A stretch of 21,533 bases of DNA, taken from assembly GCA_038851755.1 (NCBI GenBank), contig JAWCKR010000012.1, positions 1-21,533 on the forward strand, given 5' to 3'. The translations under genes were made by a program, and so were the position numbers. This document shows, piece after piece, positions 3 through 15,276 of the stretch. Source of the stretch: Candidatus Hadarchaeales archaeon. Lineage in GTDB: Archaea > Hadarchaeota > Hadarchaeia > Hadarchaeales > WYZ-LMO6. Every line of letters starts with the position of its first letter. Within the stretch, counting starts at the first letter, position 1. The notes beneath the pieces are model-generated. The model did no database searches and was not told where the DNA came from. It saw nothing but the letters and a program-made list of their open reading frames with translations.

Positions 3-992
3 ATGGACGTGTTCTTGACCAACGTGATCCAGTCCATCTTCGAGTCCCAGCCCAGGGAGCACCCCGAGCTGAAGGTGCTCCTGATCTTCGACGAGGTCCA
101 CAGGCTGCTTCCGAAGTACGGGGGGAGCGGGGCAGGTGAGCTCCAGCTGGAGAGGGCGGTGAGGGAGTTCAGGAAGTGGGGTATAGGGGTGATGCTGGTC
201 TCCCAGACCATCGCCGACTTCTCAGAGACCATCAAGACCAACTGCCGCACCCAGGTGCAGTTCTGGACCAGGGAAGAGGGGGAGCTGCAGCGCATAGCCC
301 AGAAGTACGGGGACGAGCACGTGAGGTCCGTGTCCAGGGCCCCGATAGGCTTCGGGATGGTGGTGAACCCGGACTACAACCGCGGCAGGCCGTACTACGT
401 GAACTTCAGGCCCATCCTGCACTCTCCCTTCAGGCTCTCCCCGGAGGAGCTGGACAAGTACTACGCCGCCGACGACAGGATCGAGAACATCAGGTTCAAG
501 CTGAAGAAGCTCGAGGAGAAGGGGGTCGATGTCTTCGACCTGCGCATCGAGCTGGGCCTGGCCCAGCGCAAGCTGGAGGAGGCCTCCTTCGACATGGTCA
601 ACGCCTACCTGGACTCCCTGGAGCCCAGGGTGGACGAGGTCTGCGCCAAGCACAAGCTGAAGGGCATAAAGAGGGTGATCGAGCTGGTGCCGGAGGAGGA
701 GATCAGGAAGACCCAGATGGCGGCCCTCAGGGAGCGCGAGAGGCAGCTGGCGATGATGAGGAGGCCCCCGGAGATCGTGGAGGCCTACAAGGAGATCCTG
801 GGTCCGAAGAAGGAGGTGAAGCACGGGGAGGCGGAGAAGCCCCTGAAGGAGGAGAAGGAAGAGGAGATGGTGCACCCGGAGGCCAGGGGGGAGAAGCTGG
901 AAGAGGAGCCCAAGGAGAAGGCTAAAGGGGAGGAAAAGAAGAAGAAAAATGGGGGCAAAAACGGTGGCTCCAACGGGAAGAAGAAGGGGTGA
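3..992 (+). CDS. HerA/FtsK/VirB4-superfamily (DUF87-like) P-loop ATPase, C-terminal part; gene begins upstream of the window
   Basis: Walker B LLIFDEVH, arginine-finger motif AVREFRKWG, and LVSQ motif typical of HerA/VirB4-like ATPases. Walker A is not in the window. A helical/coiled-coil domain and a charged low-complexity tail follow. Confidence 0.8.
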   Translation: MDVFLTNVIQSIFESQPREHPELKVLLIFDEVHRLLPKYGGSGAGELQLERAVREFRKWGIGVMLVSQTIADFSETIKTNCRTQVQFWTREEGELQRIAQKYGDEHVRSVSRAPIGFGMVVNPDYNRGRPYYVNFRPILHSPFRLSPEELDKYYAADDRIENIRFKLKKLEEKGVDVFDLRIELGLAQRKLEEASFDMVNAYLDSLEPRVDEVCAKHKLKGIKRVIELVPEEEIRKTQMAALRERERQLAMMRRPPEIVEAYKEILGPKKEVKHGEAEKPLKEEKEEEMVHPEARGEKLEEEPKEKAKGEEKKKKNGGKNGGSNGKKKG

Positions 993-995
993 GGG

Positions 996-1913
996 ATGAA
1001 GCTGAAGAAGAAGGAGGAGAAGGAAGAGAGGAAGGAGGACCCCTCACCCGCACCCTCCCAGGCCGGGGGGGGAGAGAAGGCCCCTCCCCTGGGGATGAGG
1101 CTGGACCAGCTGGAGGCGCAGGTCACCGCCCTCACCAGCTTCAGGGAGGTCTACGATGCCAGGTTCACCACCCTCAGCGAGAAGATAGGGGAGATCAGGT
1201 CCATGGTCCTCACGCAGGCCAAGGACAACGCGGAGCTGAAGGCCAAGGCGGAGAAGGCCCTGATGGCCATAGAGGGGATAAAGCCCGAGGAGTTCAGGGC
1301 GGCCATCATGAGGAGGGACGCCGAGATAGAGAAGCTGAACACCAAGTTCGTGACCCTGGAGGAGATGATCAAGAACCTGATGAACGAGATGAAGGAGTTC
1401 AGGTCCGCCCTGGCCCAGTTCAAGGGGATGGAGGCCATCCTGGGTATGACGGACGAGGCCAGGAAGAACATGATCAGGATCCAGCAGCTGAAGGACCAGG
1501 TGGAGGTGATGTCGGACAAGGTGATGGCGGCCTTCCTGGAGTTCCAGAGGGGCTTCAGGGACGTGACCAACCTCTCCCTGAAGCTCACCACCCTGGAGGA
1601 GACGGTGAAGCCCCTGGAGAAGGCGGTGAGCCAGATGGACGTGGTGGTGAAGCAGGCGGTAACCAAGGCGGAGCTGGCGAAGCTCACGGGTGACCTGGAG
1701 ACCCTTAAGCGCTTGGCTCAGGAGATCAAGGAGCACTACGAGAGGCTCTCCTCCAGGAAGGATGCCCTGGAGGACCTCAGGGCGGAGCAGAGAAGGGAGC
1801 TGAAGAGGCTGGAGGCCAAGTACAGGAAGGAACTGTCGAAGATAAATGCCAAGGTGAGGGTGCTGGAGAGGGTTTCTTCGAGGATCCTGAACCTCCTCCT
1901 CTCCGCTAAGTAG
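996..1913 (+). CDS. Long coiled-coil protein of unknown function (305 aa)
   Basis: Starts 3 bp after the ATPase stop; host-like codon usage; continuous heptad-like L/I/V with E/K pattern from about residue 35 to the end; no TM segment or signal peptide. Confidence 0.85.
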   Translation: MKLKKKEEKEERKEDPSPAPSQAGGGEKAPPLGMRLDQLEAQVTALTSFREVYDARFTTLSEKIGEIRSMVLTQAKDNAELKAKAEKALMAIEGIKPEEFRAAIMRRDAEIEKLNTKFVTLEEMIKNLMNEMKEFRSALAQFKGMEAILGMTDEARKNMIRIQQLKDQVEVMSDKVMAAFLEFQRGFRDVTNLSLKLTTLEETVKPLEKAVSQMDVVVKQAVTKAELAKLTGDLETLKRLAQEIKEHYERLSSRKDALEDLRAEQRRELKRLEAKYRKELSKINAKVRVLERVSSRILNLLLSAK

Positions 1914-1945
1914 CTTAAAAGGCGGGTTTTGCAGGTTTATTTTGA
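1913..1945 (+). promoter_or_regulatory. AT-rich tract: possible terminator of the upstream operon and/or TATA box of minD-like gene 1
   Basis: CTTAAAA and TTTATTTT motifs in a very GC-rich background, directly after the stop at 1913 and about 110-140 bp before the GTG at 2054. Confidence 0.35.
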
Positions 1946-2053
1946 GGGTGGAAAGGTGCACACGGGGTGGGAGAACAAGAGAGGGTCCACAGGCCTATAC
2001 CCTTCCACCCAGGCCGCCCGGCGTAGGGGTTCCGAAGAGGTGAGAGGACGGTC

Positions 2054-2848
2054 GTGAGGAGGAAGGGTTTCGTGCTGGGGGTCTTCTCCGCGAAGGGGGG
2101 CGTGGGAAAGACCACCACCGTCTCCAACCTGGGAGCCGCCCTGGCGCAGAAGAAGAAGGGGAAGGTGGTGATCATGGAGACGAACATGACCGCCTCCAAC
2201 CTGGGCCTCTACCTGGGGGTGGTGGACCCGCCCGTCGTGGTGCAGGACCTCCTCTACGGGAAGCTGAGGCCTGAGGAGGCCCTGGTCAAGACTCCCTACG
2301 GCCTCCATCTCCTCCCGGGGTCGGTGGCCTACACCGATGAGGTAATGGCGGTGGACTTTTCTACCATCGTGGACACCCTGAAGAAGAAGTACGAGATCAT
2401 CCTGCTGGACACCGCCCCAGGCTTCGCCCCGGAGGTCACGGCCGCCATGAGGGTGTGCGATGCGATCATGGTCTGCTGCCAGCCCCAGATCCCGGCCATA
2501 GCGGGTACCCTCCAGACCCTGAGGATGGCGGAGCGCCTGAAGGTGCCGGTGATCGGATGCGTTCTCACCAGGGTGACGGGAAGGAGGTGGGAGATACCCA
2601 TTTCGGAGATCAGGAGGACGCTGGGCTGGCCCGCCTTGGCGGAGATCCCGGAGGACGAGATGGTCCCGGAGAGCATCACCCGGGGGACTCCTGTGGTGCT
2701 CTGGGCCCCCCGCTCCCCGGCGGCGGTGGGCTACCTGAAGCTCTCGGCGCAGCTCCTCTCCCACCTGAGGCGCAGGAAGGTCAAGAAGGGGAGGAAGAAG
2801 ACCAGGCGTTCCCGGCGCCTTCCGGTGATGGTGCCCCCCTCTTCCTAG
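2054..2848 (+). CDS. minD: MinD/ParA-family ATPase (paralogue 1)
   Basis: Deviant Walker A KGGVGKTT, LLDTAPG switch II, EIPED motif; GTG start preceded by GAGGTGA SD-like sequence; basic C-terminal tail. Confidence 0.9.
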   Translation: MRRKGFVLGVFSAKGGVGKTTTVSNLGAALAQKKKGKVVIMETNMTASNLGLYLGVVDPPVVVQDLLYGKLRPEEALVKTPYGLHLLPGSVAYTDEVMAVDFSTIVDTLKKKYEIILLDTAPGFAPEVTAAMRVCDAIMVCCQPQIPAIAGTLQTLRMAERLKVPVIGCVLTRVTGRRWEIPISEIRRTLGWPALAEIPEDEMVPESITRGTPVVLWAPRSPAAVGYLKLSAQLLSHLRRRKVKKGRKKTRRSRRLPVMVPPSS

Positions 2849-3455
2849 CCACCTCCTCCACCGCCCTGGCCGGTGCCTCCCCCAGCCTGCGTTCGAGATC
2901 CTCCAGCAGCCTCCCCGCGAGGGAGCCCAGCTGCCAGAGGTCCACGTAGAGCTGGACGGGAGGTACGGTTCCCTCCCTCCCCAGCTTCAGGAGGTGCTCG
3001 TCCGGGGTCAGGACGAAGAGGTTGGGCCTCTTCCTGCGCGGGCCGTAGATCCTCCTCACCTCCTCGGGAGGGGCGTAGACGAAGACCCTGGAGTAGTCCA
3101 CCGGGCAGGAGCCGAAGAGCCTTCGGTACCCCGAGTGGGCGGTGAGGAGCCCGAGGGAGGAGAGCCTCTCCTCCATCCTGGATATGGCCTCGGCGGAAAA
3201 GGTGGTGTACACCACGTCCCCGGAGATTTCCCTGGTGGCTGCCCAGTAGAGGAGCATCCTCCTGGGATCCACCAGCCTGAAGCCCAGCGGCCTCCTCTCC
3301 ACCATCCCCATCAGCTCGAACTTGCCCACCAGGGGGTTCACCGTCCCCAGGGAGAGACCGCAGCTCCCCGCCAGCTCCTTCTGGTTGAAGAACCTCCTTC
3401 CCTTCTCGTGGTACTGGTGGAGGATTTCCCTCATCACCCTGTCTATCTTCCTCAC
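2781..3455 (-). CDS. Winged helix-turn-helix transcriptional regulator with AbiEi/DUF2186-like C-terminal domain
   Basis: N-terminal HTH (NQKELAGSCGLSLGTVNPLVGKF), DPRRMLLYWA, and C-terminal VPPVQLYVDLW resembling type IV antitoxin-like regulators; GTG start with GGTGGGG SD-like sequence. Confidence 0.75.
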   Translation of the reverse strand: MRKIDRVMREILHQYHEKGRRFFNQKELAGSCGLSLGTVNPLVGKFELMGMVERRPLGFRLVDPRRMLLYWAATREISGDVVYTTFSAEAISRMEERLSSLGLLTAHSGYRRLFGSCPVDYSRVFVYAPPEEVRRIYGPRRKRPNLFVLTPDEHLLKLGREGTVPPVQLYVDLWQLGSLAGRLLEDLERRLGEAPARAVEEVARKRGAPSPEGAGNAWSSSSPS

Positions 3456-3478
3456 TCCCCCACCTTCCCCGCCTCCCC

Positions 3479-3506
3479 TTTTTAAGGTTTCGATTTAAAC
3501 CGAAAC
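3479..3506. promoter_or_regulatory. Divergent promoter with TATA-like boxes and 20-bp palindromic putative operator
   Basis: GTTTCG-A-TTTAAA-C-CGAAAC at 3487-3506 (one mismatched pair); CTTAAAAA on the minus strand starting at 3486, 31 nt before the regulator start codon. Confidence 0.65.
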
Positions 3507-3561
3507 AAAACCGCCCTGGGAAACCCGCGAGGGGGAGGGCGGGGAGAGATTCTATTGGCGG

Positions 3562-6500
3562 GTGGAGGTGCGCACCGTTTCCTGCGAGAGGGCCCAGAGG
3601 AGGGATTCCCCCCCTGCGGGGAGGGGAGAGGCCCCTCTCTCCCTCCTCCTGAGCCTCCTGCTCCTCTTTTCCTCCCTTTCCCCCGTTCTGGCCGAGGATT
3701 GGTACGAGCTGGAGAGCTGGACGGGAGAAGGGGAGGGAACGGCGGGATGGTCGGCCCTGGAGAGCTGGGAGGGAGGGGTGAGGACGCTGGGGCCTCCTCA
3801 GCTGCTCTATCCCCCCCACGCTTCCTTCCTTCCCACGGCCACCCCCACCCTCGACTGGTCGGAGGTGAGCGGGGCCACCTCCTACCAGCTCCTGGTGGAC
3901 AACGATCCGAGCTTCACCTCTCCCGAGGTCAACGTCTTCCCCACCTCCAGCGAGTACGCGGTCCCTTCCCCAGGTCTTTCCGATGGCATCTGGCACTGGA
4001 GGGTCAGGGCCAAGGCCGGAGCCCTCAGCTCCCCCTGGTCGGAGGTCAGGAGCTTCACCGTGGACACGGTCTTTCCCCCCTCACCTTCCCTCTTCCTTCC
4101 CGGGGAGGGGGAGAACCTCCTCGAGGACCAGCCCCTCTTCCTCTGGTCCAGCGTCTGGGACTCCAGTGGCGTGAGCTACATCCTGGAGATAGACAACGAC
4201 CCTGACTTCGGCTCCCCCCTCTACAGGAAAGCGGGGCTGACGGAGAATCAACACAGGCTCGAGAACAAGCTCTGCGAGAACTTCTCCCCCTACCGCTGGA
4301 GGGTCTGCGCCGTGGACGGGGCAGGGAACGAGAACTGGTCCCAGCCCTACACCTTCACCCTGAAGGTCTTTCCCTCCTCCCTGGTCCAGCCCCTCTCCCC
4401 CTACTGGCAGACCTCCTCCCCCATCTCCGTGACGGTCACCGCTTCCGACAACGACGGCACGGTGGAGAACGTGGAGCTCTGGTACCGCTGGTCCCCCGAC
4501 AACTCCAGCTGGAGCTCCTGGATCCTCTACGACAACCTCTCCACCTCTCCCTACACCTTCTCCTTTGTCCCCCCCAGCGGGCAGGGGCACTACCAGTTCT
4601 ATTCCAGGGCGTGGGATGACAGGGGGAACTACGAGCAGGCCCCTCCGGGAGCGGAGGCGGAGGTGGGTTACGACAACACTCCACCCGCCACCCCCTCCCC
4701 CTCCCTTCCCGAGAACGGGGCCACCGTGGAGACCCCCACTCCCACCCTGGGATGGAGCGGAGTGGAGGACGTCTCCGGCGTCACGTACGAGCTGGAGGTG
4801 TACGAGAACCAGAACCTGAATCTCCTCTATCACTTGCTCCTCGCGGAAAACGTGTACCCGCTGGAGAACGCGCTTGAGAGCGGGAGCTACCGGTGGAGGG
4901 TGAAGGCCAGGGATGGAGCGGGATGGGAGAGCGGTTGGTCCGAGAACTACTACTTCACCGTCCGCCTCTGGTGGGGGCTGGAGTCCTGGTGGACGGGCTC
5001 GGCCGGCCAGGGTTTCTGGCGGGAGGTGGAGGGGTGGACGGGGACGGTGGTGGCACCCCATGTGTGGAAGGAACTGGAGGAATGGGGAGGGTCCTGTTCG
5101 ACCAGAGGGGGCTGGGAGAGGGTGGAGGAGTGGGTGATCTTCACGACCTCTCCGGGAGTCTGGCATGTCCTCGAGGGATACGCGGTGTTCCTTCCCTCGT
5201 CCGTCTGCTGGTGCAAGCTGGAAGGCTTTGGTAGTGCCGTAGTGACCCAGCCCCTCTGGAGGGGGGTGGAGGGCTGGCAGGGCGGTGTGGGGGGAATCAC
5301 CGGGGCCTGGAGGGAGACGGAGAGGTGGTCGGCTTCCTTCCAGGTTTTTCAGGGCTCCTGGCTTCCCTCCGACTCCTGGTCCTGTGCCTCCTCTTCCCCC
5401 GTCCCACGGCCCAGCCCGATTTCCCCCAAGGATGGGTACAACACCCAGACCTCCCCCACTCTGGAGTGGGAGAACCTCCAGCCGGCGGATAACTTCCACG
5501 TTCAGGTGGACAACGATCCCGCTTTCCCCTCCCCCAAGGCCGAGGGATGGACCTCTTCCACCTCCTTCGCTCCGGGGCCCCTGCAGGACAACCTGTACTA
5601 CTGGAGGGTGAGGATGTTCCGCTCAGGCGAGAACTCCCCCTGGTCCGAGGTCCGCACCTTCAGGGTCGACACGGTGCCCCCGGCCAAGCCCCAGCTCCTC
5701 TCGGAGAACGAGAACGATTCCACACCCCTCCTGACCTGGCAGGCCCCGCCCGAGAACTCCCTCCCGCTGGCGTACTACGTGGAGGTTTCGACCTCCAAGT
5801 ACTTCGAGCCCGAGAGCGTGGTTGAAAACGTCTGGGTCTCCTCCACCAGCTACGAGACCTCCTTCAAGGAGGACGGTATCTGGTGGTGGAGGGTCCTGGC
5901 CAGGGACAACGCAGGGAACACGGGTCTCTTCTCCGAGGCGCGCAATTTCAGGGTCGACACCCTCCCCCCACTGGTCCCGAGCCTGATCCAGCCGGAGAAC
6001 GGAGGTTGGAGGAGTTCTTCCCCCACCTTCGCATGGCAGTCCGTCGAGGAGAACTCCAAGCCCGTGCTCTACCGCTTCTTCCTGGCATACGATGAGGGCT
6101 TCAACCTGAAGGTGGAGGACCTCTGGACCGCTTCCACCTCCCTCTCCTTCCTCCTTCCGGAGGGCACCTACTGGTGGAGGGTGGGGGCAAGGGACAACGC
6201 TGGGAACTGGAGCGGGTGGTCGGGTGGAAGGTGGTTCAGGATCGATAACACTCCTCCTTCTAAGGTTACCCTACTCCACCCCGAGAACGAGGGTTGCGTT
6301 GGTCAGCAGGTGGAGCTGGAGTGGGAGAACGCGACGGACGAGGGGGCGGGGGTAAGGTGGTACGAGGCGGAGGTGGACACCGACCCTGGCTTTTCCTCCC
6401 CGGAGTGGAGGGAGAACTCCGCGGAAAACCGTTCCTCCATCCTGCTCGAGCCGGGGGAGTACTGCTGGCGCGTCAGGGCATGGGACAACGCAGGGAACCC

Positions 6501-9500
6501 GGGTGAGTGGTCGGGGGTCAGGTGGTTCAGGGTGTGCAGGTGGGAGGCGCTGGAGGGATGGTCGGTGGGCGCCGGGTACTTCCCTGGATGGTACCCGCTG
6601 GAGGGATGGGTGGTCTCTTCCTCGGCGGAAGCGGGCTGGAGGAAGCTGGAGGGTTGGTCCGCGGATGCTCTGGCGGTGGCGGGTTGGTTCTCCCTCGAGA
6701 GCTGGAGTGTTCAGGTGGGGGCCCTCAGCTGGTGGAGGCTCTCGGACTCCTGGGTGGGAAGCGCCCGGACACCCGTCGGATGGAGAGTGGTGGAGGGATG
6801 GGAAGGGGGAACGGAGGCGCTCCCGTGCTGGAGGGTACTGGAGAAGTGGCAGGGACAGCTCTCCTCTCCCCCCTGCTGGTGGGTGCTGGAGGGTTGGATG
6901 GGAGGAATGAACACGGTGGTGGGCTGGAGAGCGCTGGAAGGCTGGCAGCTGCAGTCGGTGGTCCCCTCACTCTGGAGAGCGCTGGAAGGCTGGGCGGTGG
7001 CGGTTCGCTCCTCGATGCTCTGGTACTGCCTGGAGGGCTGGACGGCCTGGTTCTCCCTCCCCTCATGCTGGCGGGTGCTGGAGGGGTGGATGGTGGCTGT
7101 CCACGCTCCGGCTTCCTGGTTGGTCCTGGACTCCTGGCGGGGAGGGATGGAGGCGCCTTCCTCCTGGTTCCTGCTGGAGGGTCGCTCGTCAACGCTGGGG
7201 GCCCCAGCTCTCTGGAGGGGGCTGGAGGGATGGTCCAGCTGGCTCGTCACTCCATCCTTCTGGGGCCATCTGGAGTCCTGGCAGGCGGGAGGCGCCGGGC
7301 CAGCCGAATGGAGGATGCTGGATGCCGGGAGCGCGGGGGTGGGGGCCCAGGCTCACTGGGTGAAGGTGGAGGAGTGGATGAGTGCCGCGAGCGCCCCTGC
7401 CGGGTGGAAGGGGCTGGAGGGGTGGTCGGTAGGGGTGGAGGGCGAGGTGAGGTGGTGCAAACTCGAAGAGGTGGAGGCCTTGGCACGCGCGGGGGCGGGC
7501 TGGAGGGAAATGGAGGGATGGGCGGGCACTCTCTCCTCCCAGCCTTCCGTTTGGAGGGAAGCCGAGGGTTGGTCGGTGGGAGTCTCCTCCCCGCCCCTCT
7601 GGAAGGCGCTGGAAGGTTGGTTGGCCCAGCTCTCCTTCCCGGCTTCCTGGCACCCCTCCGACTCCTGGTCCTGTGCCTCCTCTTCCCCCTTGCCTGCCCT
7701 GCTCCTCCTTTCCCCACCCGATCGGGAGAACACCAAGGACACCACCCCCACTCTGGAGTGGGAGAACCTCCAGCCGGCGGACAACTTCGAGCTCCAGGTG
7801 GACAACGAGCCCACCTTCTCCGAGCCCGTGACCTACTGGAAGAGAGGCCTGACGGTGACTTCCCACGAGCTGGAGAACGGGCTCCAGGACAACCTGTACT
7901 ACTGGAGGGTGAGGATGTTCCGCTCAGGCGAGAACTCCCCCTGGTCCGAGGTCCGCACCTTCAGGGTCGACACGGTGCCCCCGGCCAAGCCCGCTCCCCT
8001 GAGTCCTTTGGCCAGCGAGAACGTGGGGGACAACACCCCCACCCTTACCTGGCAGGCCCCACCGGAGAACTCCCTCCCGCTGACGTACTACGTGGAGGTC
8101 TCCCCCGACAAGGTCAACATAGCGGAGAATGCCTGGGTCTCCTCCACCAGCTACGAGACCTCCTTCAAGGAGGACGGTATCTGGTGGTGGAGGGTCCTGG
8201 CCAGGGACAACGCAGGGAACACGGGTCTCTTCTCCGACTGGAGGAGGTTCCGCGTGGACACCCTTCCTCCCTCCGCGCCCTCCCCCCTCTCCCCAGAGAA
8301 CGACAGGTGGGTGCAGACCTCCCCGCTCCTGAGCTGGAGCGCGGTGGAGGAGAACTCCCTCCCCGTTACCCACAACTTGGTGATCCTCTACTATCCCAGC
8401 CTGCTGGTGAGGGAGAACGTGTGGACGGACTCCACCTCCTTCGCCACCACGCTGGACGAGGGAAGGTACCTCTGGAGGGTGAGGGCCAGGGACAACGCGG
8501 GGAACGTGGGGCCGTGGTCGGAGGACCGTCTCTTCGGCGTGGACAATACCCCTCCCTCGGGGGCTGAGCCCCTCTCCCCCCAGAACGGTGCCTTCTTGGA
8601 CCTCGGCCAGATTCAGCTGGGGTGGACTTCTTCAATGGACGCCCCTTCCGGGGTGGATGGCTACCACCTGCAGGTGGGGGCGGGGCAGGACCTCTCTCCC
8701 ATCCTCCACGAGAACGAGGAGGTGGAAGAGAACACCTACACCTGGGTGCCTCCCTCCCCGGGGATCTACAGCTGGCGCGTGAGGGCTCTCGACCTCGCCG
8801 GGAACGCGAGTGAGTGGTCGGGGGTCAGGTGGTTCAGGGTGTGCAGGTGGGAGGCGCTGGAGGGATGGACGGCCTGGGCTGAGGCGCCAGCGGGATGGGA
8901 GGCGCTGGAGGGATGGGCTGGTCACTCGTCCTCTCCCTCGGGCTGGAGGGCACTGGAGGGATGGGGAGGCGGGATGGAGGCTCCCTTCTCGGGCTGGAGG
9001 GCACTGGAGGGATGGGGCGATGGCGTCCGCGCCGTTCAGGCCTGGTGGAGGGTGGTGGAGGAGTGGACGGTCTTCCTCCCCGCGGGTGTGCTGGCGCCCG
9101 TGCTCCTCTTCCCCGAGAACGGGAGGAACCTGAAAGAGAACGCGCCCACGCTGGGCTGGGAAGCCGTCTTCCTGGCGGACAACTACAGGCTCCAGCTCTC
9201 CTCCGAGGCGCCGGAGTGGAGGGCGGAGAACGCCAGGGTGGGGAGCGAGCCCCTGCAGCTGGTGGACGGTTCCTCCAGAAGGGGGGAGGTGGTGGGAGGG
9301 TCCCTGGAGAACACCTGGTGGGAAGACGGAGTGTGCGAGAACGTGGCGGAGAACGAGGAGGACAACACCCTCAACTGGGAGCACAGGATAGAGAACGTAC
9401 CACCGGCCTCCCTCTACGTGCTCAGGGTGAAAGGCAGGACGAGCGGGGATGAGAACGTGGGAGTCTACCTGTGGGAGACGGGTGGCTGGAGGTTCCTGGG

Positions 9501-12500
9501 CATGCTCGGGGAGGAGGAGAACTTGCTGGAGTTCTCCTTCGGCCCGCTGGAGCTGCCGAAGTACCTGGTGGACGGTGCGATCCACGTGAGGTACCTGGAG
9601 AACACCCACGACGGCGTCCGGACGGTGCTCCAGGTGGACCTGTGCGTGGTGGAGGGATGGTCCCAGGAGTTCCCCTCCACCCTCGTGGACCAGGTGCTCA
9701 CGGAGAACCATTACGCTACCTCCTCCCTCCCCGACAACCTCTACCGCTGGCGCGTGAGGGCCTCGGTGGCTGGCCTGGCGGGGATGTGGTCCGAGATCAG
9801 GACCTTCAGGGTAGACACCCTGCCCCCGCAGTCTCCACCCACCCTCCTCTCCCCCATCAACGGGGACAACGAGAACACACCCACCCCCACCCTCATCTGG
9901 TCCTCCCCCCCGGAGAACTCCTATCCGCTGGCTTTCTTCGTGCAGCTGGCCTTGGATTCCCTCTTCACGCAGCCCGTGGAGAACTCCGGCTGGATCCAGC
10001 AGAACTACTGGGTTCCCTCCCCCCTGCAGGAGAACGTCTACTACTGGAGGGTCTTCGTGAAGGACAACGCGGGCAACGAGTGTCCCGTTCCCTCGATCAC
10101 CTGGAGCTTCAGGGTGGACCTCACCCCGCCGCCGGCACCCACCCTCCTCTCGCCAGCGGACTGGGAGAACCTGAGAGCCGAGCCCCTCCTGAGGTGGGGG
10201 AGCGTGTGGGACGTCTCCGGGCCGGTCAGCTACAACGTGAGGGTGGAGTACGGTCCGGTCACCGTTTACGACGTGACGGTGCCGGAGAACGCCTGGCAGG
10301 TGCCGCCGCTCCAGGTTGACGGAATCTACAGCTGGAGGGTGAGGAGCCGGGACGGGGCGGGTAACTGGAGTCCCTTCACCTCACCGCGTTCCTTCCAGCT
10401 GGACAGGGTTCCACCCCCCGCTCCCTCGCCCCTCTCTCCACAGAACGGGGAGAACCTCAGGGAAGTGGAGTTCAGGTGGGCCCCGGTGACCGAGAACTCC
10501 CTGCCCGTGAGGTACAGGGTGCTCCTCAGCGACAACGAGGAGTTCCCCTACGAGAACGGGAGTTCAGAGTGGCTGGAGGGAGAGAACTGGAGGATGGACC
10601 TCACCCTCCCCGACGGGATCTGGTACTGGAGGGTCCAGGCCAGGGACAACGCGGGGAACGAGGGGGAGAACTCGGAGGTCCGCTGGTTCAGGCTGGACAC
10701 CCAGCCCCCCCAGGAGGTGACCCTCCTCTGGCCCGACAACGAGGCCACGCTGGAGAACTCCCAGCCCACCCTCACCTGGAGCGAGGGGGCGGACAACTCC
10801 ACCCCCCTCAGGTACAGGGTCCTGGTCTCCAGGAGGGGCGCGGTGGAGAACTACCTGGATTCGGGCTGGATTCATGAGAACTGGTGGGAGGTCCCCTCCC
10901 CCCTCCCGGACAACGACTACGAGTGGAGGGTCCAGGCCAGGGACAACGCGGGCAACGTGTTCGAGACACCCTCCTGGTGGTTCAGGGTGGAGAACGCCCC
11001 GCCCCCAGCCCCCTCACCCCTCTCCCCCGAGAACGGGAAGGTGGTGGGGGTTTCCTCGCCCCTGCTCGTCTGGCAGCCCTCCTGGGACATCTCCCAGCCC
11101 GTCCTCCACAGGGTCTGGGTCTCCACGGACGAGAACTTCGAGAACGTGGTGGCGGACTCCGACTGGAGGGACAACGACCGCTGGGAGGTCTCACCTCCGC
11201 TGGAGGACAACCTCACCTATTACTGGAGGGTCCAGGCCAGGGACAACTCCGGGAAGGAGAGTGAGAACTCCCTGACGTACCGCTTCTTCACGGACCTGCA
11301 CGCCCCTTCGGAGGTCGAGCTGCTCTCTCCGGGGAACGGGGCGGAGCTGGAGACCTTCACCCTCATGTTCAAGTGGAGGAGCGTGGAGGACAACACCCCG
11401 GTCCTCTACGAACTCGGGGTGGACAACGAGCCTGGGCTGGTTGAGCCCTTCGTCCACGCGGAGAACACCCACGAGAACTCCAGGATTGTGGGCTTCTCCC
11501 AGCCCGGAACCTACTACTGGAGGGTGAAGGCGAGGGACGGGGCCGGACACGAGAACTCCTCGGGGGTCTGGAGCTTCACCCTCAGGAAGTGGTGGTCCCT
11601 CGAGGGTTGGAGCTCGGGCGTGTCCGGTCCCCAGGAGGAGGGATGGAGGATGCTGGACGGAAGGGTGGGCTCTGCCGCCAGCTTCACCCCCGGGTGGAGG
11701 AAGGCCGAGGAGTGGAGCGTCCAGGTAAAGGGAGGGGTGGGGTGGAGGGAACTGGAGAAAAGGGTATTCGTGCTGAGACATCAGGCCTCCTGGAGGGCGC
11801 TGGAGGGAAGAAAGTTCTCCCTGAGGGCCCCGGTGCTCAGGGGATGGGCGCAGCTGGAGAACAGGGCCTTCAAGATGGTGGCCCCCCACAGATGGAACGG
11901 GCTGGACAGCTTCTCGGTGGAGGGGGTGGCGGCCGCCGGCTGGAAGTGGGTGGTGGTGGGAGGGCCCCCGTTCCTCCTCGAGTGGGCCCCGCTGGAGGGA
12001 TGGAGGGTGGGGGTGAGCGGCTGGGCTCCCCCCTCCGTCGGGGGGGTTTCCCTCGGATACTTGGAGCCCGGTGTCCCGAGCGCCACCGACCTCTCCTGGC
12101 TCGGGACCTGCGTGGCGGGACTGGAAGTGGTGGTGGGCGAGGGGGGAAGGGTGACGGTCTCGGTCTGGGAGGCCAGAGAGTTCCCAGCCTCCCTCCCGCC
12201 GGAACTCGTACCCTACCGGTACTTCCAGGTGGACCTGAAAGAACCCTCCCCCTCCCTCTCCTACGCAGTGGTGAGGGTGAGGGTGAGCCGCTCCTGGGTG
12301 AGGGAGGAAAGGATAGAGGTGAGGACCATCGGGGTGAGGAGGCTCTCCCACGGGGAAGAGCTTCAGGTGGAGGAGGTGGGAAGGGACGACAGGTACCTGT
12401 ACTTCCAGTTCAGGACGACCGAACTCGGTACCTTCCTCCTCTTCGGGGAGCGGGTGAGGGTGCCTCCTTCCCCGCCCGTGGCCCTGCTGCCAACCTTCGA

Positions 12501-13008
12501 GGTCCCCACCGCCCCCTCCTCCCTGGTCCTCCTGCTGGTCTTCTTGGGCCTGATCCTGGCGATGGCGGGCTTCGGCCTCTACCAGGTCAGCTGGTCCTTC
12601 AGGTACGGGAGGATGGTGGGCATGCTGAGGAGGACCACGGAGAGGCCCGAGCGCAGGAGGGCGGTGAGGGAGAGGGTGAGGCTCACCAAGAGGCAGAGGG
12701 AGAGCCTGGTCAGGATGTCCCTCCTCCTGCGGCGCGCGGGCCTGCCGAAGGTGGTCCCCGTGCGCAGGCGCCTGGCGAAACCGGAGAGGGTGGCGGTGGA
12801 GGCCCTGGAGAGGTTCATAAGGGAGAGGAGGAAGGAGGCCGGCCTCACTCCGCCGGAGATGGAGAAGCTCAGGAGAGAGGCCAGGAAGGAACTGGCTTCC
12901 TGGAAGACCCTGGAGGAGGTGGTGGAGCGCAAGAGGAAGGAAGTGCTGAGGCGCAGGAAGGTCAGAGGCTCTTCAGGCGCTCGGAGAGGGAAGAAGCGAG
13001 CTTCTTGA
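3562..13008 (+). CDS. Giant (3148 aa) membrane-anchored cell-surface protein: FN3/Ig-like repeats, Trp-rich 16-aa repeats, PGF-pre-PGF-like domain, TM helix, basic cytoplasmic tail
   Basis: Uninterrupted 9.4-kb ORF; signal peptide LSLLLSLLLLFSSLSPVLA|ED; about 18 repeats of ~100 aa (PxLLSPxNG..TPTLxW..YYWRVRARDNAGN..WSEVRxFxVDTxPP); TM LVLLLVFLGLILAMAGFGLY at about 12523-12590. Confidence 0.93.
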   Translation: MEVRTVSCERAQRRDSPPAGRGEAPLSLLLSLLLLFSSLSPVLAEDWYELESWTGEGEGTAGWSALESWEGGVRTLGPPQLLYPPHASFLPTATPTLDWSEVSGATSYQLLVDNDPSFTSPEVNVFPTSSEYAVPSPGLSDGIWHWRVRAKAGALSSPWSEVRSFTVDTVFPPSPSLFLPGEGENLLEDQPLFLWSSVWDSSGVSYILEIDNDPDFGSPLYRKAGLTENQHRLENKLCENFSPYRWRVCAVDGAGNENWSQPYTFTLKVFPSSLVQPLSPYWQTSSPISVTVTASDNDGTVENVELWYRWSPDNSSWSSWILYDNLSTSPYTFSFVPPSGQGHYQFYSRAWDDRGNYEQAPPGAEAEVGYDNTPPATPSPSLPENGATVETPTPTLGWSGVEDVSGVTYELEVYENQNLNLLYHLLLAENVYPLENALESGSYRWRVKARDGAGWESGWSENYYFTVRLWWGLESWWTGSAGQGFWREVEGWTGTVVAPHVWKELEEWGGSCSTRGGWERVEEWVIFTTSPGVWHVLEGYAVFLPSSVCWCKLEGFGSAVVTQPLWRGVEGWQGGVGGITGAWRETERWSASFQVFQGSWLPSDSWSCASSSPVPRPSPISPKDGYNTQTSPTLEWENLQPADNFHVQVDNDPAFPSPKAEGWTSSTSFAPGPLQDNLYYWRVRMFRSGENSPWSEVRTFRVDTVPPAKPQLLSENENDSTPLLTWQAPPENSLPLAYYVEVSTSKYFEPESVVENVWVSSTSYETSFKEDGIWWWRVLARDNAGNTGLFSEARNFRVDTLPPLVPSLIQPENGGWRSSSPTFAWQSVEENSKPVLYRFFLAYDEGFNLKVEDLWTASTSLSFLLPEGTYWWRVGARDNAGNWSGWSGGRWFRIDNTPPSKVTLLHPENEGCVGQQVELEWENATDEGAGVRWYEAEVDTDPGFSSPEWRENSAENRSSILLEPGEYCWRVRAWDNAGNPGEWSGVRWFRVCRWEALEGWSVGAGYFPGWYPLEGWVVSSSAEAGWRKLEGWSADALAVAGWFSLESWSVQVGALSWWRLSDSWVGSARTPVGWRVVEGWEGGTEALPCWRVLEKWQGQLSSPPCWWVLEGWMGGMNTVVGWRALEGWQLQSVVPSLWRALEGWAVAVRSSMLWYCLEGWTAWFSLPSCWRVLEGWMVAVHAPASWLVLDSWRGGMEAPSSWFLLEGRSSTLGAPALWRGLEGWSSWLVTPSFWGHLESWQAGGAGPAEWRMLDAGSAGVGAQAHWVKVEEWMSAASAPAGWKGLEGWSVGVEGEVRWCKLEEVEALARAGAGWREMEGWAGTLSSQPSVWREAEGWSVGVSSPPLWKALEGWLAQLSFPASWHPSDSWSCASSSPLPALLLLSPPDRENTKDTTPTLEWENLQPADNFELQVDNEPTFSEPVTYWKRGLTVTSHELENGLQDNLYYWRVRMFRSGENSPWSEVRTFRVDTVPPAKPAPLSPLASENVGDNTPTLTWQAPPENSLPLTYYVEVSPDKVNIAENAWVSSTSYETSFKEDGIWWWRVLARDNAGNTGLFSDWRRFRVDTLPPSAPSPLSPENDRWVQTSPLLSWSAVEENSLPVTHNLVILYYPSLLVRENVWTDSTSFATTLDEGRYLWRVRARDNAGNVGPWSEDRLFGVDNTPPSGAEPLSPQNGAFLDLGQIQLGWTSSMDAPSGVDGYHLQVGAGQDLSPILHENEEVEENTYTWVPPSPGIYSWRVRALDLAGNASEWSGVRWFRVCRWEALEGWTAWAEAPAGWEALEGWAGHSSSPSGWRALEGWGGGMEAPFSGWRALEGWGDGVRAVQAWWRVVEEWTVFLPAGVLAPVLLFPENGRNLKENAPTLGWEAVFLADNYRLQLSSEAPEWRAENARVGSEPLQLVDGSSRRGEVVGGSLENTWWEDGVCENVAENEEDNTLNWEHRIENVPPASLYVLRVKGRTSGDENVGVYLWETGGWRFLGMLGEEENLLEFSFGPLELPKYLVDGAIHVRYLENTHDGVRTVLQVDLCVVEGWSQEFPSTLVDQVLTENHYATSSLPDNLYRWRVRASVAGLAGMWSEIRTFRVDTLPPQSPPTLLSPINGDNENTPTPTLIWSSPPENSYPLAFFVQLALDSLFTQPVENSGWIQQNYWVPSPLQENVYYWRVFVKDNAGNECPVPSITWSFRVDLTPPPAPTLLSPADWENLRAEPLLRWGSVWDVSGPVSYNVRVEYGPVTVYDVTVPENAWQVPPLQVDGIYSWRVRSRDGAGNWSPFTSPRSFQLDRVPPPAPSPLSPQNGENLREVEFRWAPVTENSLPVRYRVLLSDNEEFPYENGSSEWLEGENWRMDLTLPDGIWYWRVQARDNAGNEGENSEVRWFRLDTQPPQEVTLLWPDNEATLENSQPTLTWSEGADNSTPLRYRVLVSRRGAVENYLDSGWIHENWWEVPSPLPDNDYEWRVQARDNAGNVFETPSWWFRVENAPPPAPSPLSPENGKVVGVSSPLLVWQPSWDISQPVLHRVWVSTDENFENVVADSDWRDNDRWEVSPPLEDNLTYYWRVQARDNSGKESENSLTYRFFTDLHAPSEVELLSPGNGAELETFTLMFKWRSVEDNTPVLYELGVDNEPGLVEPFVHAENTHENSRIVGFSQPGTYYWRVKARDGAGHENSSGVWSFTLRKWWSLEGWSSGVSGPQEEGWRMLDGRVGSAASFTPGWRKAEEWSVQVKGGVGWRELEKRVFVLRHQASWRALEGRKFSLRAPVLRGWAQLENRAFKMVAPHRWNGLDSFSVEGVAAAGWKWVVVGGPPFLLEWAPLEGWRVGVSGWAPPSVGGVSLGYLEPGVPSATDLSWLGTCVAGLEVVVGEGGRVTVSVWEAREFPASLPPELVPYRYFQVDLKEPSPSLSYAVVRVRVSRSWVREERIEVRTIGVRRLSHGEELQVEEVGRDDRYLYFQFRTTELGTFLLFGERVRVPPSPPVALLPTFEVPTAPSSLVLLLVFLGLILAMAGFGLYQVSWSFRYGRMVGMLRRTTERPERRRAVRERVRLTKRQRESLVRMSLLLRRAGLPKVVPVRRRLAKPERVAVEALERFIRERRKEAGLTPPEMEKLRREARKELASWKTLEEVVERKRKEVLRRRKVRGSSGARRGKKRAS
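3700..3783 (+). repeat. Trp-repeat tract 1 (2 copies) at the mature N-terminus
   Basis: WYELESW and WSALESW, 16 aa apart, right after the predicted signal cleavage site. Confidence 0.75.
4969..5400 (+). repeat. Trp-repeat tract 2 (9 copies)
   Basis: WWGLESW, WREVEGW, WKELEEW, WERVEEW, WHVLEGY, WCKLEGF, WRGVEGW, WRETERW, WLPSDSW at 16-17 aa spacing. Confidence 0.85.
5365..6561 (+). repeat. Copy A of ~1.2-kb intragenic duplication (four FN3 domains plus tract borders)
   Basis: Identical blocks with copy B: 5365-5400=7654-7689, 5453-5489=7745-7781, 5584-5691=7885-7992, 5832-5936=8133-8237, 6503-6561=8810-8868. Confidence 0.9.
6541..7689 (+). repeat. Trp-repeat tract 3 (24 copies, 48-bp period)
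   Basis: First W of copy 1 (6541) to first W of copy 24 (7648) spans 369 codons = 23x16+1; consensus WxxLEGW plus 9 variable residues. Confidence 0.92.
7654..8868 (+). repeat. Copy B of ~1.2-kb intragenic duplication
   Basis: Same identical blocks as copy A at offsets of 2289-2307 bp. Confidence 0.9.
8848..9080 (+). repeat. Trp-repeat tract 4 (5 copies)
   Basis: WEALEGW x2, WRALEGW x2, WRVVEEW; neighbouring copies share identical 21-30 bp DNA stretches. Confidence 0.85.
11590..12025 (+). repeat. Trp-repeat tract 5 (about 8 more degenerate copies)
   Basis: WWSLEGW, WRMLDGR, WRKAEEW, WRELEKR, WRALEGR, WAQLENR, WNGLDSF, WAPLEGW. Confidence 0.8.
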
Positions 13009-13690
13009 GTTCCCTGGCGGCCTTCGACCTGGGGCGGTACTTCACGACCGGGATGCCAGCTGCCGTGGACTCCCTCACCCTCTTGTCCTCGGGGATCACC
13101 CCTATCACAGGCCAGCCGAGGGCCTCCCTTATCTCCCCCAGCGAGAGCTCGAAGGGCTCCCCTGCCACCCGGTTCACCACCACCCCCAGGATGGGTACCC
13201 TGTACTTTTCCGCGGCCCTGAAGGTCTTGAGGGTGCTGGCGATGGTGGGGACGTAGGGGTTGGTCACGATGATCATCCCCGTGCAGGCCTTCAGGGCGGC
13301 CACCACCTCGCTCCCTATCCCCGGGGCGGAGTCCAGCAGGATCATCTCGTACTCCTTCTTGAGGGGGGAGAGGAGTTCCCTGAGGTCCACCGGGCGGACC
13401 TCGTCCTCGTAGGCTATGGAGCCCAGCACCATGGGCACCCCCTGGATGTTCAGAACGGCTTCCTCGATGGGCAGGTCGGAGGAGATCACGTCGTGCACCG
13501 TGGCCTTGGGTGTCAGTTCCCCGAAGTGCAGGCCCAGGTTGGGGGCCCCCAGGTTGGCGTCGAAGGCAAGGACCTTCCTCTTCAGGTCCACCAGGCTGGA
13601 GGCCAGGTTGGAGACCACCGTGGTCTTTCCCACCCCTCCCTTGCAGGAGAAGACCCCTATCACCTTGGCCTCCCTGGGCCTGATCTCCAT
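12962..13690 (-). CDS. minD: MinD/ParA-family ATPase (paralogue 2)
   Basis: KGGVGKTT, FDANLGAPNL, LLDSAPG, VVVNRV, VIPED. ATG at 13690 has a GGAG SD; an in-frame GTG at 13759 (31 nt after the TATA box) is an alternative leaderless start. The ORF-track start at 13816 lies upstream of the TATA box and is unlikely. Confidence 0.9.
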   Translation of the reverse strand: MEIRPREAKVIGVFSCKGGVGKTTVVSNLASSLVDLKRKVLAFDANLGAPNLGLHFGELTPKATVHDVISSDLPIEEAVLNIQGVPMVLGSIAYEDEVRPVDLRELLSPLKKEYEMILLDSAPGIGSEVVAALKACTGMIIVTNPYVPTIASTLKTFRAAEKYRVPILGVVVNRVAGEPFELSLGEIREALGWPVIGVIPEDKRVRESTAAGIPVVKYRPRSKAARELKKLASSLSERLKSL

Positions 13691-13779
13691 CCCCCTCTCC
13701 TTCCTGGGGGGTTTGAGGAGGGTGGGGAGCTTTTTTCCCCTCTTGGGCCTTGCGGGCACATTCTCCCTTTTCCCCGGAA

Positions 13780-13790
13780 CTAAATATAAG
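13780..13790 (-). promoter_or_regulatory. TATA box for minD-like gene 2
   Basis: CTTATATTTAG on the minus strand in the divergent intergenic region. Confidence 0.6.
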
Positions 13791-13845
13791 GTCGGCTCGG
13801 GGATTGCACCGGCCACCGGTCCTGCGCCACCCCCACGGCCCTCCC

Positions 13846-13887: not shown

Positions 13888-14535
13888 ATGGAAGCGGTTT
13901 CCCTGGACCTGGATGGCACCCTGGTGGACATGAGCTTCGCCAACAGGGTGTGGCTGGAGGAGATACCGAGGTTCTACTCCCTCAGGCACGGCCTTCCCCT
14001 GCAGAGGGCCAGGGAGGTGGTGAGGGAGGAGTACGACAGGGTGGGCGACGGAAGGCTGGAGTGGTACGACCTCCAGTACTGGCTCAGGAAGTTCGACCTC
14101 CCGGTGGAACCCCGGGAGCTCTTCGAGCGCTCCAGGGAGGCGGTGAGGATTTATCCGGAGGTCCCGGGGGTGCTCGAGGAGCTCAGGAGAGAGGGGTACA
14201 GGCTCCTCCTCCTCACCAACGCGCCGAGGGAGTTCGCCTCCTTCCAGCTCGGGGTCCTGGGCCTGGAGGGCTACTTCGACCGCTTCTTCTCTTCCTTCTC
14301 CGACTTCCGCAGGATCAAGCGGTCCGAGGAAACCTACCTCAGGATCCTGCAGGAGTGCTCCCTCTCCCCCTCCCAGCTCGTCCACGTGGGTGACCACTTC
14401 GAGTACGATTACCAGGTCCCCAGGAGGGTGGGGATAAAGGCCTTCTACCTGGACAGGAAGGGCAGGACCTCGGGAGAGTTCGTGGTGAGGGACCTCAGGG
14501 AGTTCAGGGAGAGGCTCAGGAACGGGTTCGGGTAG
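13888..14535 (+). CDS. HAD-superfamily hydrolase (subfamily IA)
   Basis: Motif I DLDGTLVD, motif II LLTN, motif III K (IKRS), motif [11 protein letters not shown]. Confidence 0.93.
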
Positions 14536-14543
14536 GTGGTCGT

Positions 14544-14816
14544 GTGAGGGTGAGGGCCCACGTTCATGTCAGCGGGAGGGTGCAGGGGGTCTTCTTCCGG
14601 TACAGGACCAGCGAGCTGGCGGAGCGCCTGGGCGTGGCCGGATGGGTGAGGAACCTGCCCGACGGGAGGGTGGAGGCGGTCTTCGAAGGGGAGAAGGAGG
14701 AGGTGGAGAAGATGCTGGACTTCTGCAGGAGGGGTCCCCCCGGGGCGAGGGTGGACGGGGTGGAGGTGGAGTGGGAGGAGCCCAGGGGAGAGGAGGGGTT
14801 CAGGATAAGGTGGTGA
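14544..14816 (+). CDS. acyP: Acylphosphatase
   Basis: [11 protein letters not shown] and [17 protein letters not shown] signatures, GPPGARV; 90 aa. Confidence 0.96.
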
Positions 14817-14817
14817 G

Positions 14818-15276
14818 ATGGAGGTGAAGCCCATAGCGGAGGTGATGGAGGAGATGCGCCGGAAGTACCGCAGGTATCCTTCCCTCAGGAAGGAATGGAG
14901 GGTGCTGATGGGCGGGGACGACCACGGCTACGGAGACCTCTTCTTCCACGCGCCCGGGCTCGGGCTCTGGCAGATCAAGGGGGAGATGCTCAGCCCCTTC
15001 GAGCTGCTCGGTCTGGGCGTGAAGTTCTCCGCCAAGAAGATGGACGAGGAGATAAGGAGGGTGATGGAGGAGGGAGAGCCCTTCCCCTTCGGTCTGGCGT
15101 CCTTCCATCCCTCCTCCAGGAACAAGCTGGTGATAGCCTCGGGGATGGGCTGCCGCACCGAATCCACCCGCTCCCTCTCAGAGCTCCTCTCCGAGTACAG
15201 GACGGCAGGTGGGGAGCTGAGGAGGAAACTGGAGGAGCTGAAGCGGAGGCTGGGGAGGGGTGGAGAGTACCTCTGA
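14818..15276 (+). CDS. Hypothetical protein (152 aa)
   Basis: Fills the gap between acyP (1 bp away) and lhr; GGTGGTGA SD-like sequence; host-like codon usage; no recognised motif. Confidence 0.75.
   Translation: MEVKPIAEVMEEMRRKYRRYPSLRKEWRVLMGGDDHGYGDLFFHAPGLGLWQIKGEMLSPFELLGLGVKFSAKKMDEEIRRVMEEGEPFPFGLASFHPSSRNKLVIASGMGCRTESTRSLSELLSEYRTAGGELRRKLEELKRRLGRGGEYL

Follow-up and report, generated by a model that had tools for sequence, protein, structure and literature searches.

A conserved locus of giant surface proteins in a Hadarchaeales genome, with a putative SPEARE-type giant, a coiled-coil partner and MinD-type ATPases

The genome of a hot-spring Candidatus Hadarchaeales archaeon of the GTDB lineage WYZ-LMO6 (GCA_038851755.1; hereafter G000) has a size of 1.25 Mb in 26 contigs, a completeness of 93% and a G+C content of about 63%. 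The window, that is, the whole stretch of DNA analyzed here, comprises the first 21,533 bases of its contig C12 (JAWCKR010000012.1). Its first part contains six contiguous genes: the end of a gene for a giant protein fused to an ATPase (giant 1), genes for a coiled-coil protein, two MinD-type ATPases (MinD_a and MinD_b) and a winged helix-turn-helix (wHTH) protein, and a gene for a second giant, which lacks the ATPase and is therefore called motor-less (giant 2). The locus is real and conserved and is composed of two conserved sub-modules. The window holds its downstream part; in full it spans about 40-60 kb, and it probably encodes an anchored adhesive-fibre system. An earlier reading made without database searches (the sequence-only reading) had placed six genes here, and the open reading frame (ORF) listing and the family scans agree with these positions; its end coordinate, 13690, is an internal ATG of MinD_b, the frame of which reaches 13816. 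The features of the locus are as follows.

3..992, + strand: ATPase C-terminus, last 329 codons of giant 1; the 5' part is missing, as the contig starts here
996..1913, + strand: coiled-coil/helical protein, 305 aa
2054..2848, + strand: MinD_a, MinD-type ATPase (TIGR01969, E 4.5e-46)
2781..3455, - strand: wHTH protein, 224 aa; its 3' end overlaps the 3' end of MinD_a
3456..3561, no strand: divergent intergenic region, candidate operator, with AT-rich TATA-like stretches and a palindrome
3562..13008, + strand: giant 2, surface protein of 3,148 aa with a signal peptide, Ig-like domains, PGF-pre-PGF, one transmembrane helix and a basic tail
12962..13816, - strand: MinD_b, MinD-type ATPase (TIGR01969, E 3.6e-53); overlaps the 3' end of giant 2 by 47 nt

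The start codon of MinD_b is uncertain (13816 or further in), and the alignment with its orthologues starts at about residue 15-22 of this 284-aa frame. As the sequence-only reading had stated, no pilin, archaellin, FtsZ or MinC/E family was matched among the window genes scanned.

The locus genes were searched for in 41 related genomes, and a same-genus genome available as a four-contig assembly (G002) was used as the reference for giant 1. In 11 related genomes (13 loci), the 329-aa frame at 3..992 corresponds to the C-terminal part of longer open frames (694 to 7,944 aa), and the homologues from the same genus (open frames of 1,458-7,944 aa) are 92-95% identical to the product of 3..992. 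Residue 1 of this product aligns with residue 7608 of a 7,934-aa giant in G002, and the ATG at base 3 is an internal Met. Therefore, the gene previously read as a pump ATPase is the tail of a giant surface-protein gene of about 7,900 codons; an ATPase C-terminus does lie at 3..992, but not as a separate gene, and a stand-alone ATPase was rejected on the evidence of the full-length G002 orthologue, which fuses the ATPase to an ectodomain. The N-terminus of giant 1 in G000 (aa 1-287, 89% identical to G002) was found at the beginning of contig C15, where it is cut off by the contig end; together with the alignment to residue 7608, this indicates that the gene was broken by assembly. Contigs from other runs also end about 220 nt upstream of the window. 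Contigs of two runs labelled metatranscriptomic, which were flagged as probably DNA, cover all 30 bins evenly.

The ATPase portion retained in the window runs from Walker B (LLIFDEVH) onward and thus represents the second half of the domain, followed by a helical bundle and a Lys/Glu-rich tail. The complete anatomy was read from G002. In this protein, a signal-peptide-like hydrophobic segment (aa 61-81) is followed by thousands of Ig-like residues (Pfam Ig_Rha78A_N, E 1e-61; Big_13, E 2e-60; Ig_J and CarboxypepD_reg), CARDB and NPCBM_assoc (NEW3) sandwiches directly outside the membrane, and a single transmembrane (TM) helix at aa 7419-7447 of 7,934, after which comes KKRRSAKRR. The cytoplasmic part matches DUF87 (33.3 bits) and HerA_C (32.6 bits), both above the Pfam cut-offs, and has a helical Lys/Glu-rich end. 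Protease or toxin-like domains were not found in the Pfam scan of G002 giant 1. The syntenic order in G002 is a divergent MinD-like gene, the 7,934-aa giant, a 303-aa coiled coil, MinD, an opposite-strand wHTH gene, a 3,149-aa giant, an opposite-strand MinD gene, HAD and Lhr. In G000, contig C15 extends the locus by a third MinD-like gene, a 5,579-aa giant (giant 3), a wHTH paralogue and an AAA_14/DUF4143 ATPase. The two MinD genes bracketing a regulator and a giant are present as described in the sequence-only reading, whereas the locus is larger than it supposed. The AAA_14/DUF4143 ATPase (C15:2963-4219) marks the upstream edge of the locus; an upstream ORF of about 400 aa in G002 (G002:C1:115877-118293) may be transposase-like, as judged by eye in an unscanned ORF.

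An AlphaFold2 (AF2) model of the TM and cytoplasmic part of giant 1 was obtained with a 14-row alignment and a predicted local distance difference test (pLDDT) score of 76.8. The model contains a long helix at residues 28-61 (TM), which is followed by two short strands and the RecA-like core; residues 355-474 form a helical bundle. In a Foldseek comparison with the PDB, ranks 1-4 were HerA (S. solfataricus 4d2i, E 4e-9, and T. kodakarensis), followed by SIR2-HerA defence complexes, while FtsK, TcpA and VirB4 (4ag6) appeared at the lower ranks 17, 33 and 35, respectively. HerA was also matched in the sequence search (E 7e-7 over about 110 residues). The best NCBIfam match was CedD (NF053655; E 4.5e-12), at 45.4 bits against a cut-off of 600. 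In G002 giant 1, no match to CagE_TrbE_VirB (VirB4 N-terminal) was obtained, and the matches to T4SS-DNA_transf and TrwB_AAD_bind did not go beyond E 1e-4 to 3e-3, none of their stretches passing on its own. The TM helix of the model ends about 45 residues before Walker A, with the two short strands between them, so that no HAS barrel is accommodated. NurA (PF09376) was not found in G000 (93% complete), in a search whose control was positive in 7 of 14 genomes, and a separate, better DUF87 match is located on contig C16. A repair HerA linked to nurA, named in the sequence-only reading as the outcome that would speak against a surface apparatus, was rejected, since the ATPase is membrane-anchored, has no room for the HAS barrel and belongs to a genome in which NurA was not found. 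The TrbL/VirB6 family was likewise not found in G000, although the control for this search was weak (positive in 4 of 14 genomes).

The ATPase domain belongs to a widespread family, the members of which are labelled "DUF87 domain-containing" or "hypothetical" in the sources. A HMMER search against 1.84 billion cluster representatives returned 1,161 matches at E <= 1e-3, including 355 at E <= 1e-30; an ESM Atlas search with the same domain returned only generic DUF87 clusters. Among the best 150 family representatives, 110 are at least 1,000 aa long (up to 6,253 aa), and a TM-like segment ends within 80 aa before Walker A in 120 of the 126 with a recognizable Walker A. Between lineages, the ATPase cores are about 40-50% identical, and many columns of their alignment are invariant. 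The named hosts are Hadarchaeales, Aenigmatarchaeota, Woesearchaeota, Pacearchaeota, Nanoarchaeota, Micrarchaeia, Nanohaloarchaea and Ca. Nanosalina, and many of the DPANN relatives carry the laminin-G families PF13385 or PF02210. Nanohaloarchaeota giants match the ATPase domain with 40-45% identity (Nanohaloarchaea P0073, E 1.6e-111; Ca. Nanosalina VS9-1 P0357, E 4.3e-103), the published SPEARE accessions themselves not having been picked out among the matches. The tree of the ATPase domain included 58 of 60 labelled sequences, as two Micrarchaeia rows with partial domains were dropped, and the window gene was represented by the G002 domain. The 11 labelled Hadarchaeales domains and the G002 query domain formed one clade (Shimodaira-Hasegawa-like approximate likelihood ratio test, SH-aLRT, 99) with deep internal paralogues, and its sister was a small Aenigmatarchaeota/Nanopusillaceae group (SH-aLRT 94). 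Being unrooted, the tree gives no direction of transfer.

By its architecture, giant 1 belongs to the SPEARE-type protein class, which has already been published. According to Hamm et al. 2019 (PMC6642349), the SPEARE proteins of Nanohaloarchaeota, also known as "giant membrane-anchored extracellular proteins", are mostly extracellular. A TM helix lies close to their C-terminus, their conserved intracellular part was interpreted as a type III restriction enzyme, and a laminin-G domain is reported in all SPEARE ectodomains. Reva et al. 2023 (PMC10266531) reinterpreted the intracellular part as a VirB4/TraG-like ATPase with a coiled coil and proposed a secretion role. The suggestion of the sequence-only reading that the locus matches no recognized system does not hold for its core protein, which has the published SPEARE architecture and homology to Nanohaloarchaeota proteins.

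The coiled-coil gene (996..1913) begins 3 nt after the stop codon of giant 1, and its product has no TM helix. Only weak coiled-coil-type family matches were obtained for it, and the PDB-sequence profile gave coiled-coil noise only. The protein has 48 relatives, all from Hadarchaeales where named, with 32 invariant columns among 21 sequences. The ATPase (E <= 1e-80) and the coiled-coil protein were found in an identical set of 11 of the 41 relatives and are adjacent in 12 of 13 loci, the thirteenth lying at a contig end. Three more genomes gave weak ATPase matches only (E 1e-15 to 7e-6), probably to other members of DUF87. The same adjacency was observed in eight named genome loci, largely overlapping those 11 genomes. 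Of 11 metagenome loci returned, eight were examined, and L040, L044 and L045 were omitted as short or weak. A coiled-coil relative lies downstream in four of the eight, namely, L035 from the same genus and L036, L039 and L042 with 23-31% identity, and MinD adjoins it in L035 and L042; no coiled-coil relative was detected by BLAST in L037, L038, L041 and L043. A complex prediction for the ATPase cytoplasmic domain and the coiled-coil protein scored 0.00, controls not having been run, and is evidence neither way. In the X4 and X7 contigs, the spacer at 1921-2037, between the coiled-coil gene and MinD_a, is swapped for 114 unrelated letters; these runs contain a close strain at a depth of about 1000x.

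Both MinD_a and MinD_b contain the deviant Walker A motif KGGVGKT, and TIGR01969 was the best family for both (157.1 and 180.3 bits, respectively, against a cut-off of 201.75). MinD_a was also assigned to the Pfam families CbiA/AAA_31/ParA and has a basic C-terminal tail. The genome contains at least nine MinD-type genes. Eight locus-linked MinDs of Hadarchaeales formed one clade (SH-aLRT 99), excluding seven other G000 paralogues, with MinD_a in an "a" and MinD_b in a "b" sub-clade. A MinD_b-type match (at least 53% identity) was found in 22 of the 41 genomes, 13 of which lack a strong ATPase match; on this ground MinD_b was rejected as a motor-specific gene. In 18 genomes, out of 25 having a giant-2-type C-terminus match, a MinD match (E <= 1e-50, 45-96% identity) lies within 1 kb of this C-terminus, often in a convergent orientation, and the pairing was confirmed by reading the loci in G003, G020 and G022. 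MinDs of the b type also lie beside the ATPase/coiled-coil genes in L031, L032 and L034. The neighbourhood is thus not one of chance: the homologues are not scattered across the 41 relatives but co-occur, the ATPase giant with the coiled coil in the same 11 and MinD with the end of a giant in 18, which bears out the sequence-only reading on this point. Matches to PilB/FlaI-type (T2SSE) ATPases lie 1.2-2.2 kb from two more of the MinD paralogues in G000 (C18:17570-21092 and C9:24026-26512), which fits one MinD per surface system and agrees with the published connection of arCOG00589 MinDs to pili. A further convergent MinD pair was observed at C2:92590-94396, and a 2,044-aa frame with three separate T2SSE-type ATPase matches, an unusually long secretion-ATPase-like protein, at C9:559-6693.

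Giant 2 is a motor-less type-I surface protein with a signal peptide at aa 25-44 and Ig-like domains (Ig_Rha78A_N, E 5e-40; Big_13, E 8.6e-35). A PGF-pre-PGF region at nt 12214-12438 (TIGR04213, 31.1 bits against a cut-off of 28) precedes the TM helix at aa 2981-3010 (nt 12502-12591), which is followed by a basic cytoplasmic tail of 138 aa (nt 12592-13005). Giant 3 on C15 has 5,579 aa, one TM helix and a 150-aa tail. A 16-residue repeat of strict length, WxxLEGW followed by nine variable residues (the W-repeat), is common to all three giants, with 43 copies in giant 2, 121 in giant 3 (C15:4344-21083) and 19 in the G002 copy of giant 1. In giant 2, the repeats form blocks at aa 470-585, 994-1365, 1763-1845 and 2677-2825 (nt 4969-5316, 6541-7656, 8848-9096 and 11590-12036), and two copies lie near the N-terminus. 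The G000 and G002 versions of giant 2 are 77.5% identical overall; the Ig parts are 80-96% identical and the W-repeat blocks, which are the most divergent, 42-58%. The repeat is not a recent DNA duplication, and Tandem Repeats Finder found no 48-nt DNA repeat in the region. No Pfam match was obtained in the blocks, and the best ESM Atlas hit (0.80) had no recognizable relative; an AF2 prediction for the block at aa 988-1372 (5-row alignment) gave a pLDDT of 24.7 and no usable model.

The tails of the motor-less giants share YxxxWS[FY]RYG right after the TM helix and a KPE..A.E.L..F...RRK helix motif between the genera g1 and g12 (window 12592-13005; L052 of G022). This conserved tail is a candidate docking site for the adjacent MinD. 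In G003, contig C21 begins inside giant 2, and the lack of ATPase and coiled-coil matches there may therefore be an assembly gap; a true absence from this genome was rejected as a reading.

The wHTH protein, divergent from giant 2, matched HTH_Crp_2 (E 6.4e-5) and HTH_24 (E 2.2e-3), both under the Pfam cut-offs. A paralogue with 47% identity is divergent from giant 3 on C15, and wHTH relatives were found beside the module in L028, L030, L034 and L053. The spacer that separates the wHTH gene from giant 2 contains, on a TATA-like stretch, the palindrome GTTTCG-N8-CGAAAC (3487..3506); among 49 loci, this palindrome was found only in the window and at the orthologous G002 site. The spacer between the wHTH paralogue and giant 3 (L049, about 1460-1625; G000 C15) contains several TTTCGC..GCGAAA inverted repeats. 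The palindrome and these repeats are possible operators of the wHTH paralogues. A scan for bacterial-type promoters and terminators was uninformative, the host being an archaeon.

The remainder of the window (13888..21533) is occupied by housekeeping genes, including a HAD hydrolase, an Lhr-type helicase and an ATP-grasp/His_biosynth/amino-acid-kinase cluster. In the latter (18927-21501), which is syntenic in G002, the ATP-grasp gene faces opposite-strand His_biosynth (HisA/F-like) and amino-acid-kinase genes, a set that resembles methanopterin-biosynthesis clusters. Two MCR-alpha (Acr/Mcr) homologues were found in G000, at C12:35868-36239, about 22 kb downstream of the window, and at C20:175-549; these McrA/AcrA-type genes mark the genome as that of an alkyl-CoM-reductase Hadarchaeon. 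The cultured representatives of the WYZ-LMO6 GTDB family degrade alkanes and are reported to grow as single cells and to lack pilin genes.

Given the observed architecture, family membership, co-inheritance and adjacency, the locus is read as an anchored adhesive-fibre system composed of two parts. Module 1 comprises the SPEARE-type giant (about 7,900 aa in G002), in whose ectodomain W-repeats are scattered among tens of Ig-like domains, the coiled-coil protein and MinD_a, and module 2 the motor-less giant with a convergent MinD_b at its 3' end and a divergent wHTH gene at its 5' end. The giants would be exported by Sec and remain in the membrane as adhesive fibres. The fused ATPase may form a ring, like its structural relatives HerA and FtsK, that would gather several fibres at one membrane site and spend ATP on their assembly, turnover or force generation. 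The coiled-coil protein would serve as a scaffold docked on the helical tip of the ATPase. By binding the cytoplasmic tails, the MinD paralogues would cluster the fibres or put them in place, and the motor-less giants would be expressed under the control of the wHTH proteins. The likely role of the system is to attach the cell to surfaces, to substrates or to other cells. In Haloferax, MinD4 positions archaella. Polar positioning by MinD, as well as the DNA or cell-to-cell transfer considered in the sequence-only reading, might be conceived for the present locus.

Several points weigh against this reading. The function of the locus, the ATPase ring and the binding of the coiled-coil protein and MinD are inferred. 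Giant 1 is unassembled in G000, and its anatomy was taken from the 92-93% identical G002 orthologue, in which the Laminin_G family is absent at E <= 0.01 (7,933 residues scanned). Both MinD proteins fall below the curated TIGR01969 cut-off. Relatives from the WYZ-LMO6 family reportedly grow as single cells and do not form consortia, so that there is no obvious cell partner to adhere to. Finally, G012, G018 and G038 carry modules 1 and 2 on separate contigs, and 12 genomes have module 2 without a strong ATPase match, which leaves the co-operation of the six genes an inference; the six-gene unit of the sequence-only reading resolves into two sub-modules.

It is possible, though doubtful, that there is no single apparatus and that modules 1 and 2 are independent surface units, which just happen to be neighbours in this genus. 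Such units would be expected to show what is observed, namely, module 2 without a strong ATPase match in 12 of the 41 genomes and, in G012, G018 and G038, a MinD_b orthologue that is not on the same contig as the ATPase. However, the ectodomains of the three giants share the Ig-like domains and the W-repeat, MinD_a and MinD_b form sister sub-clades, and b-type MinDs adjoin the ATPase/coiled-coil genes in L031, L032 and L034; moreover, many assemblies break at giant genes, as in G003, which makes absence uncertain. An unlikely alternative is a translocator similar to a type IV secretion system (T4SS) or to Ced, in which the fused ATPase pumps DNA or effectors across the membrane at contacts made by the adhesins; this is what Reva et al. 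2023 proposed for SPEARE proteins, and it corresponds to the transfer considered in the sequence-only reading. The ATPase does fall into the HerA-FtsK superfamily of pumping ATPases, CedD is its best NCBIfam match (E 4.5e-12), and the domain is called VirB4/TraG-like by Reva et al. 2023 (PMC10266531), but CedD scored 45 bits where its cut-off is 600, and VirB4 appears only at Foldseek rank 35, behind HerA and FtsK, with no match to the VirB4 N-terminal domain. Each chain has one TM helix, no polytopic channel protein is present in the locus, TrbL/VirB6 was not found in G000 (weak control, 4 of 14), and the window contains no pilin, relaxase or integrase.

Two further explanations are very improbable. 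An island of mobile-element or anti-virus type with a HerA-type ATPase at its centre, comparable to the SIR2-HerA or DUF4297-HerA defence systems, could account for the patchy distribution (11 of 41 genomes), the weak PADLOC matches to HerA (best E 2.5e-14), the AAA_14/DUF4143 ATPase adjoining the locus on C15 and the unscanned ORF of about 400 aa, transposase-like in appearance, upstream in G002. It was rejected, as only weak HerA matches were obtained with PADLOC and the other four proteins had no meaningful match; the locus has no effector (SIR2, nuclease) and no integrase, its ATPase is fused to a 7,400-aa ectodomain, and the Hadarchaeales copies form one old clade with deep paralogues. 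A device for chromosome segregation or division, with a membrane FtsK/HerA-like pump, a ParA/MinD protein and an SMC-like coiled coil, would draw on a combination of families that acts in DNA segregation, and some coiled-coil relatives are labelled "chromosome segregation ATPase" by the Joint Genome Institute. Yet the coiled-coil protein has no ATPase head and only coiled-coil-type matches, the locus is accessory (11 of 41 relatives), and a giant variable ectodomain has no place in segregation.

The adhesive-fibre reading may be extended to a broader and rather unlikely view, in which a general and modular cytoplasmic system organizes the giant single-pass surface fibres of archaea. The conserved tail of each fibre would be held by its own MinD-family ATPase, and the HerA-type ring, fused to one type of fibre and supported by the coiled-coil scaffold, would be a hub that uses ATP for force, turnover or translocation. 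The SPEARE apparatus of DPANN would then be a specialized offshoot of a wider archaeal surface organelle, not an invention for symbiosis; this view arises because the full set occurs in a non-DPANN Hadarchaeon whose family includes single-cell members. SPEARE proteins are the foremost candidates for the means by which DPANN symbionts hold on to their hosts and exploit them, and the presence in Hadarchaeales of a putative SPEARE-type giant with a coiled coil, MinD and a motor-less sister giant, as an old single clade, separates the machine from the symbiotic lifestyle. The view of SPEARE as a host-contact tool of symbionts is weakened by this occurrence together with the single-cell family members, enrichment cultures of which could serve as a second experimental setting. 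The strict co-inheritance of the ATPase and the coiled-coil protein names a concrete candidate binding pair, and the MinD/giant-tail pairing (18 of 41 genomes) names a second one, which would carry the idea of one MinD paralogue for each surface structure beyond pili and archaella to giant adhesins. In a literature search, no paper placing SPEARE proteins in Hadarchaeota was found, and the papers found that name SPEARE proteins appear to be concerned with nanohaloarchaea or other DPANN. The same search found no description of the co-inheritance of the ATPase giant and the coiled coil, the locus-linked MinD clade, MinD abutting the 3' end of a motor-less giant, or the wHTH paralogue beside giant 3.

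Among the known systems, the HerA of the HerA-NurA complex (PDB 4d2i, 9x1m) has the RecA-like core that was the best structural match for the giant 1 ATPase; in contrast, the latter is membrane-anchored, fused to an ectodomain and without the HAS barrel, and NurA was not found in G000. CedB/CedD of the crenarchaeal Ced/Ted systems (bioRxiv 10.1101/2024.09.27.615246) are TM-anchored ATPases of the HerA clade, and CedD is the best NCBIfam match; the differences are the score (45 bits against 600), the lack of a CedA/VirB6 relative in the search with the TrbL family, and the giant ectodomain, without which the Ced proteins are described. With SPEARE, giant 1 shares a predicted Sec signal peptide, a tandem Ig-like ectodomain, one C-terminal TM helix, a cytoplasmic P-loop ATPase and a coiled-coil/helical tip, and ResIII (restriction enzyme) is also a weak match for its ATPase. 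It differs in its host, which is a member of Hadarchaeales with Acr/Mcr homologues and not a DPANN symbiont (nor of a DPANN/Altiarchaeales lineage), in an ectodomain with the 16-residue W-repeat, where laminin-G, protease and toxin-like domains were not found, and in an ATPase fold that is, as modelled, nearest to HerA and not to VirB4. Its downstream partners are a coiled coil and MinD, whereas a second VirB4/TraG-type ATPase is reported for SVXNc_0299 (PMC10266531). Makarova et al. 2016 (PMC4858521) describe the archaeal MinD/FleN-family ATPases (arCOG00589) as regulators associated with type IV pilus systems. The MinDs of the locus resemble this family in the KGGVGKT motif, in TIGR01969 (minD_arch) as the best family and in the several paralogues per genome that stand beside different surface systems, but they adjoin the 3' end of a gene for a giant single-pass surface protein, not a pilus operon.

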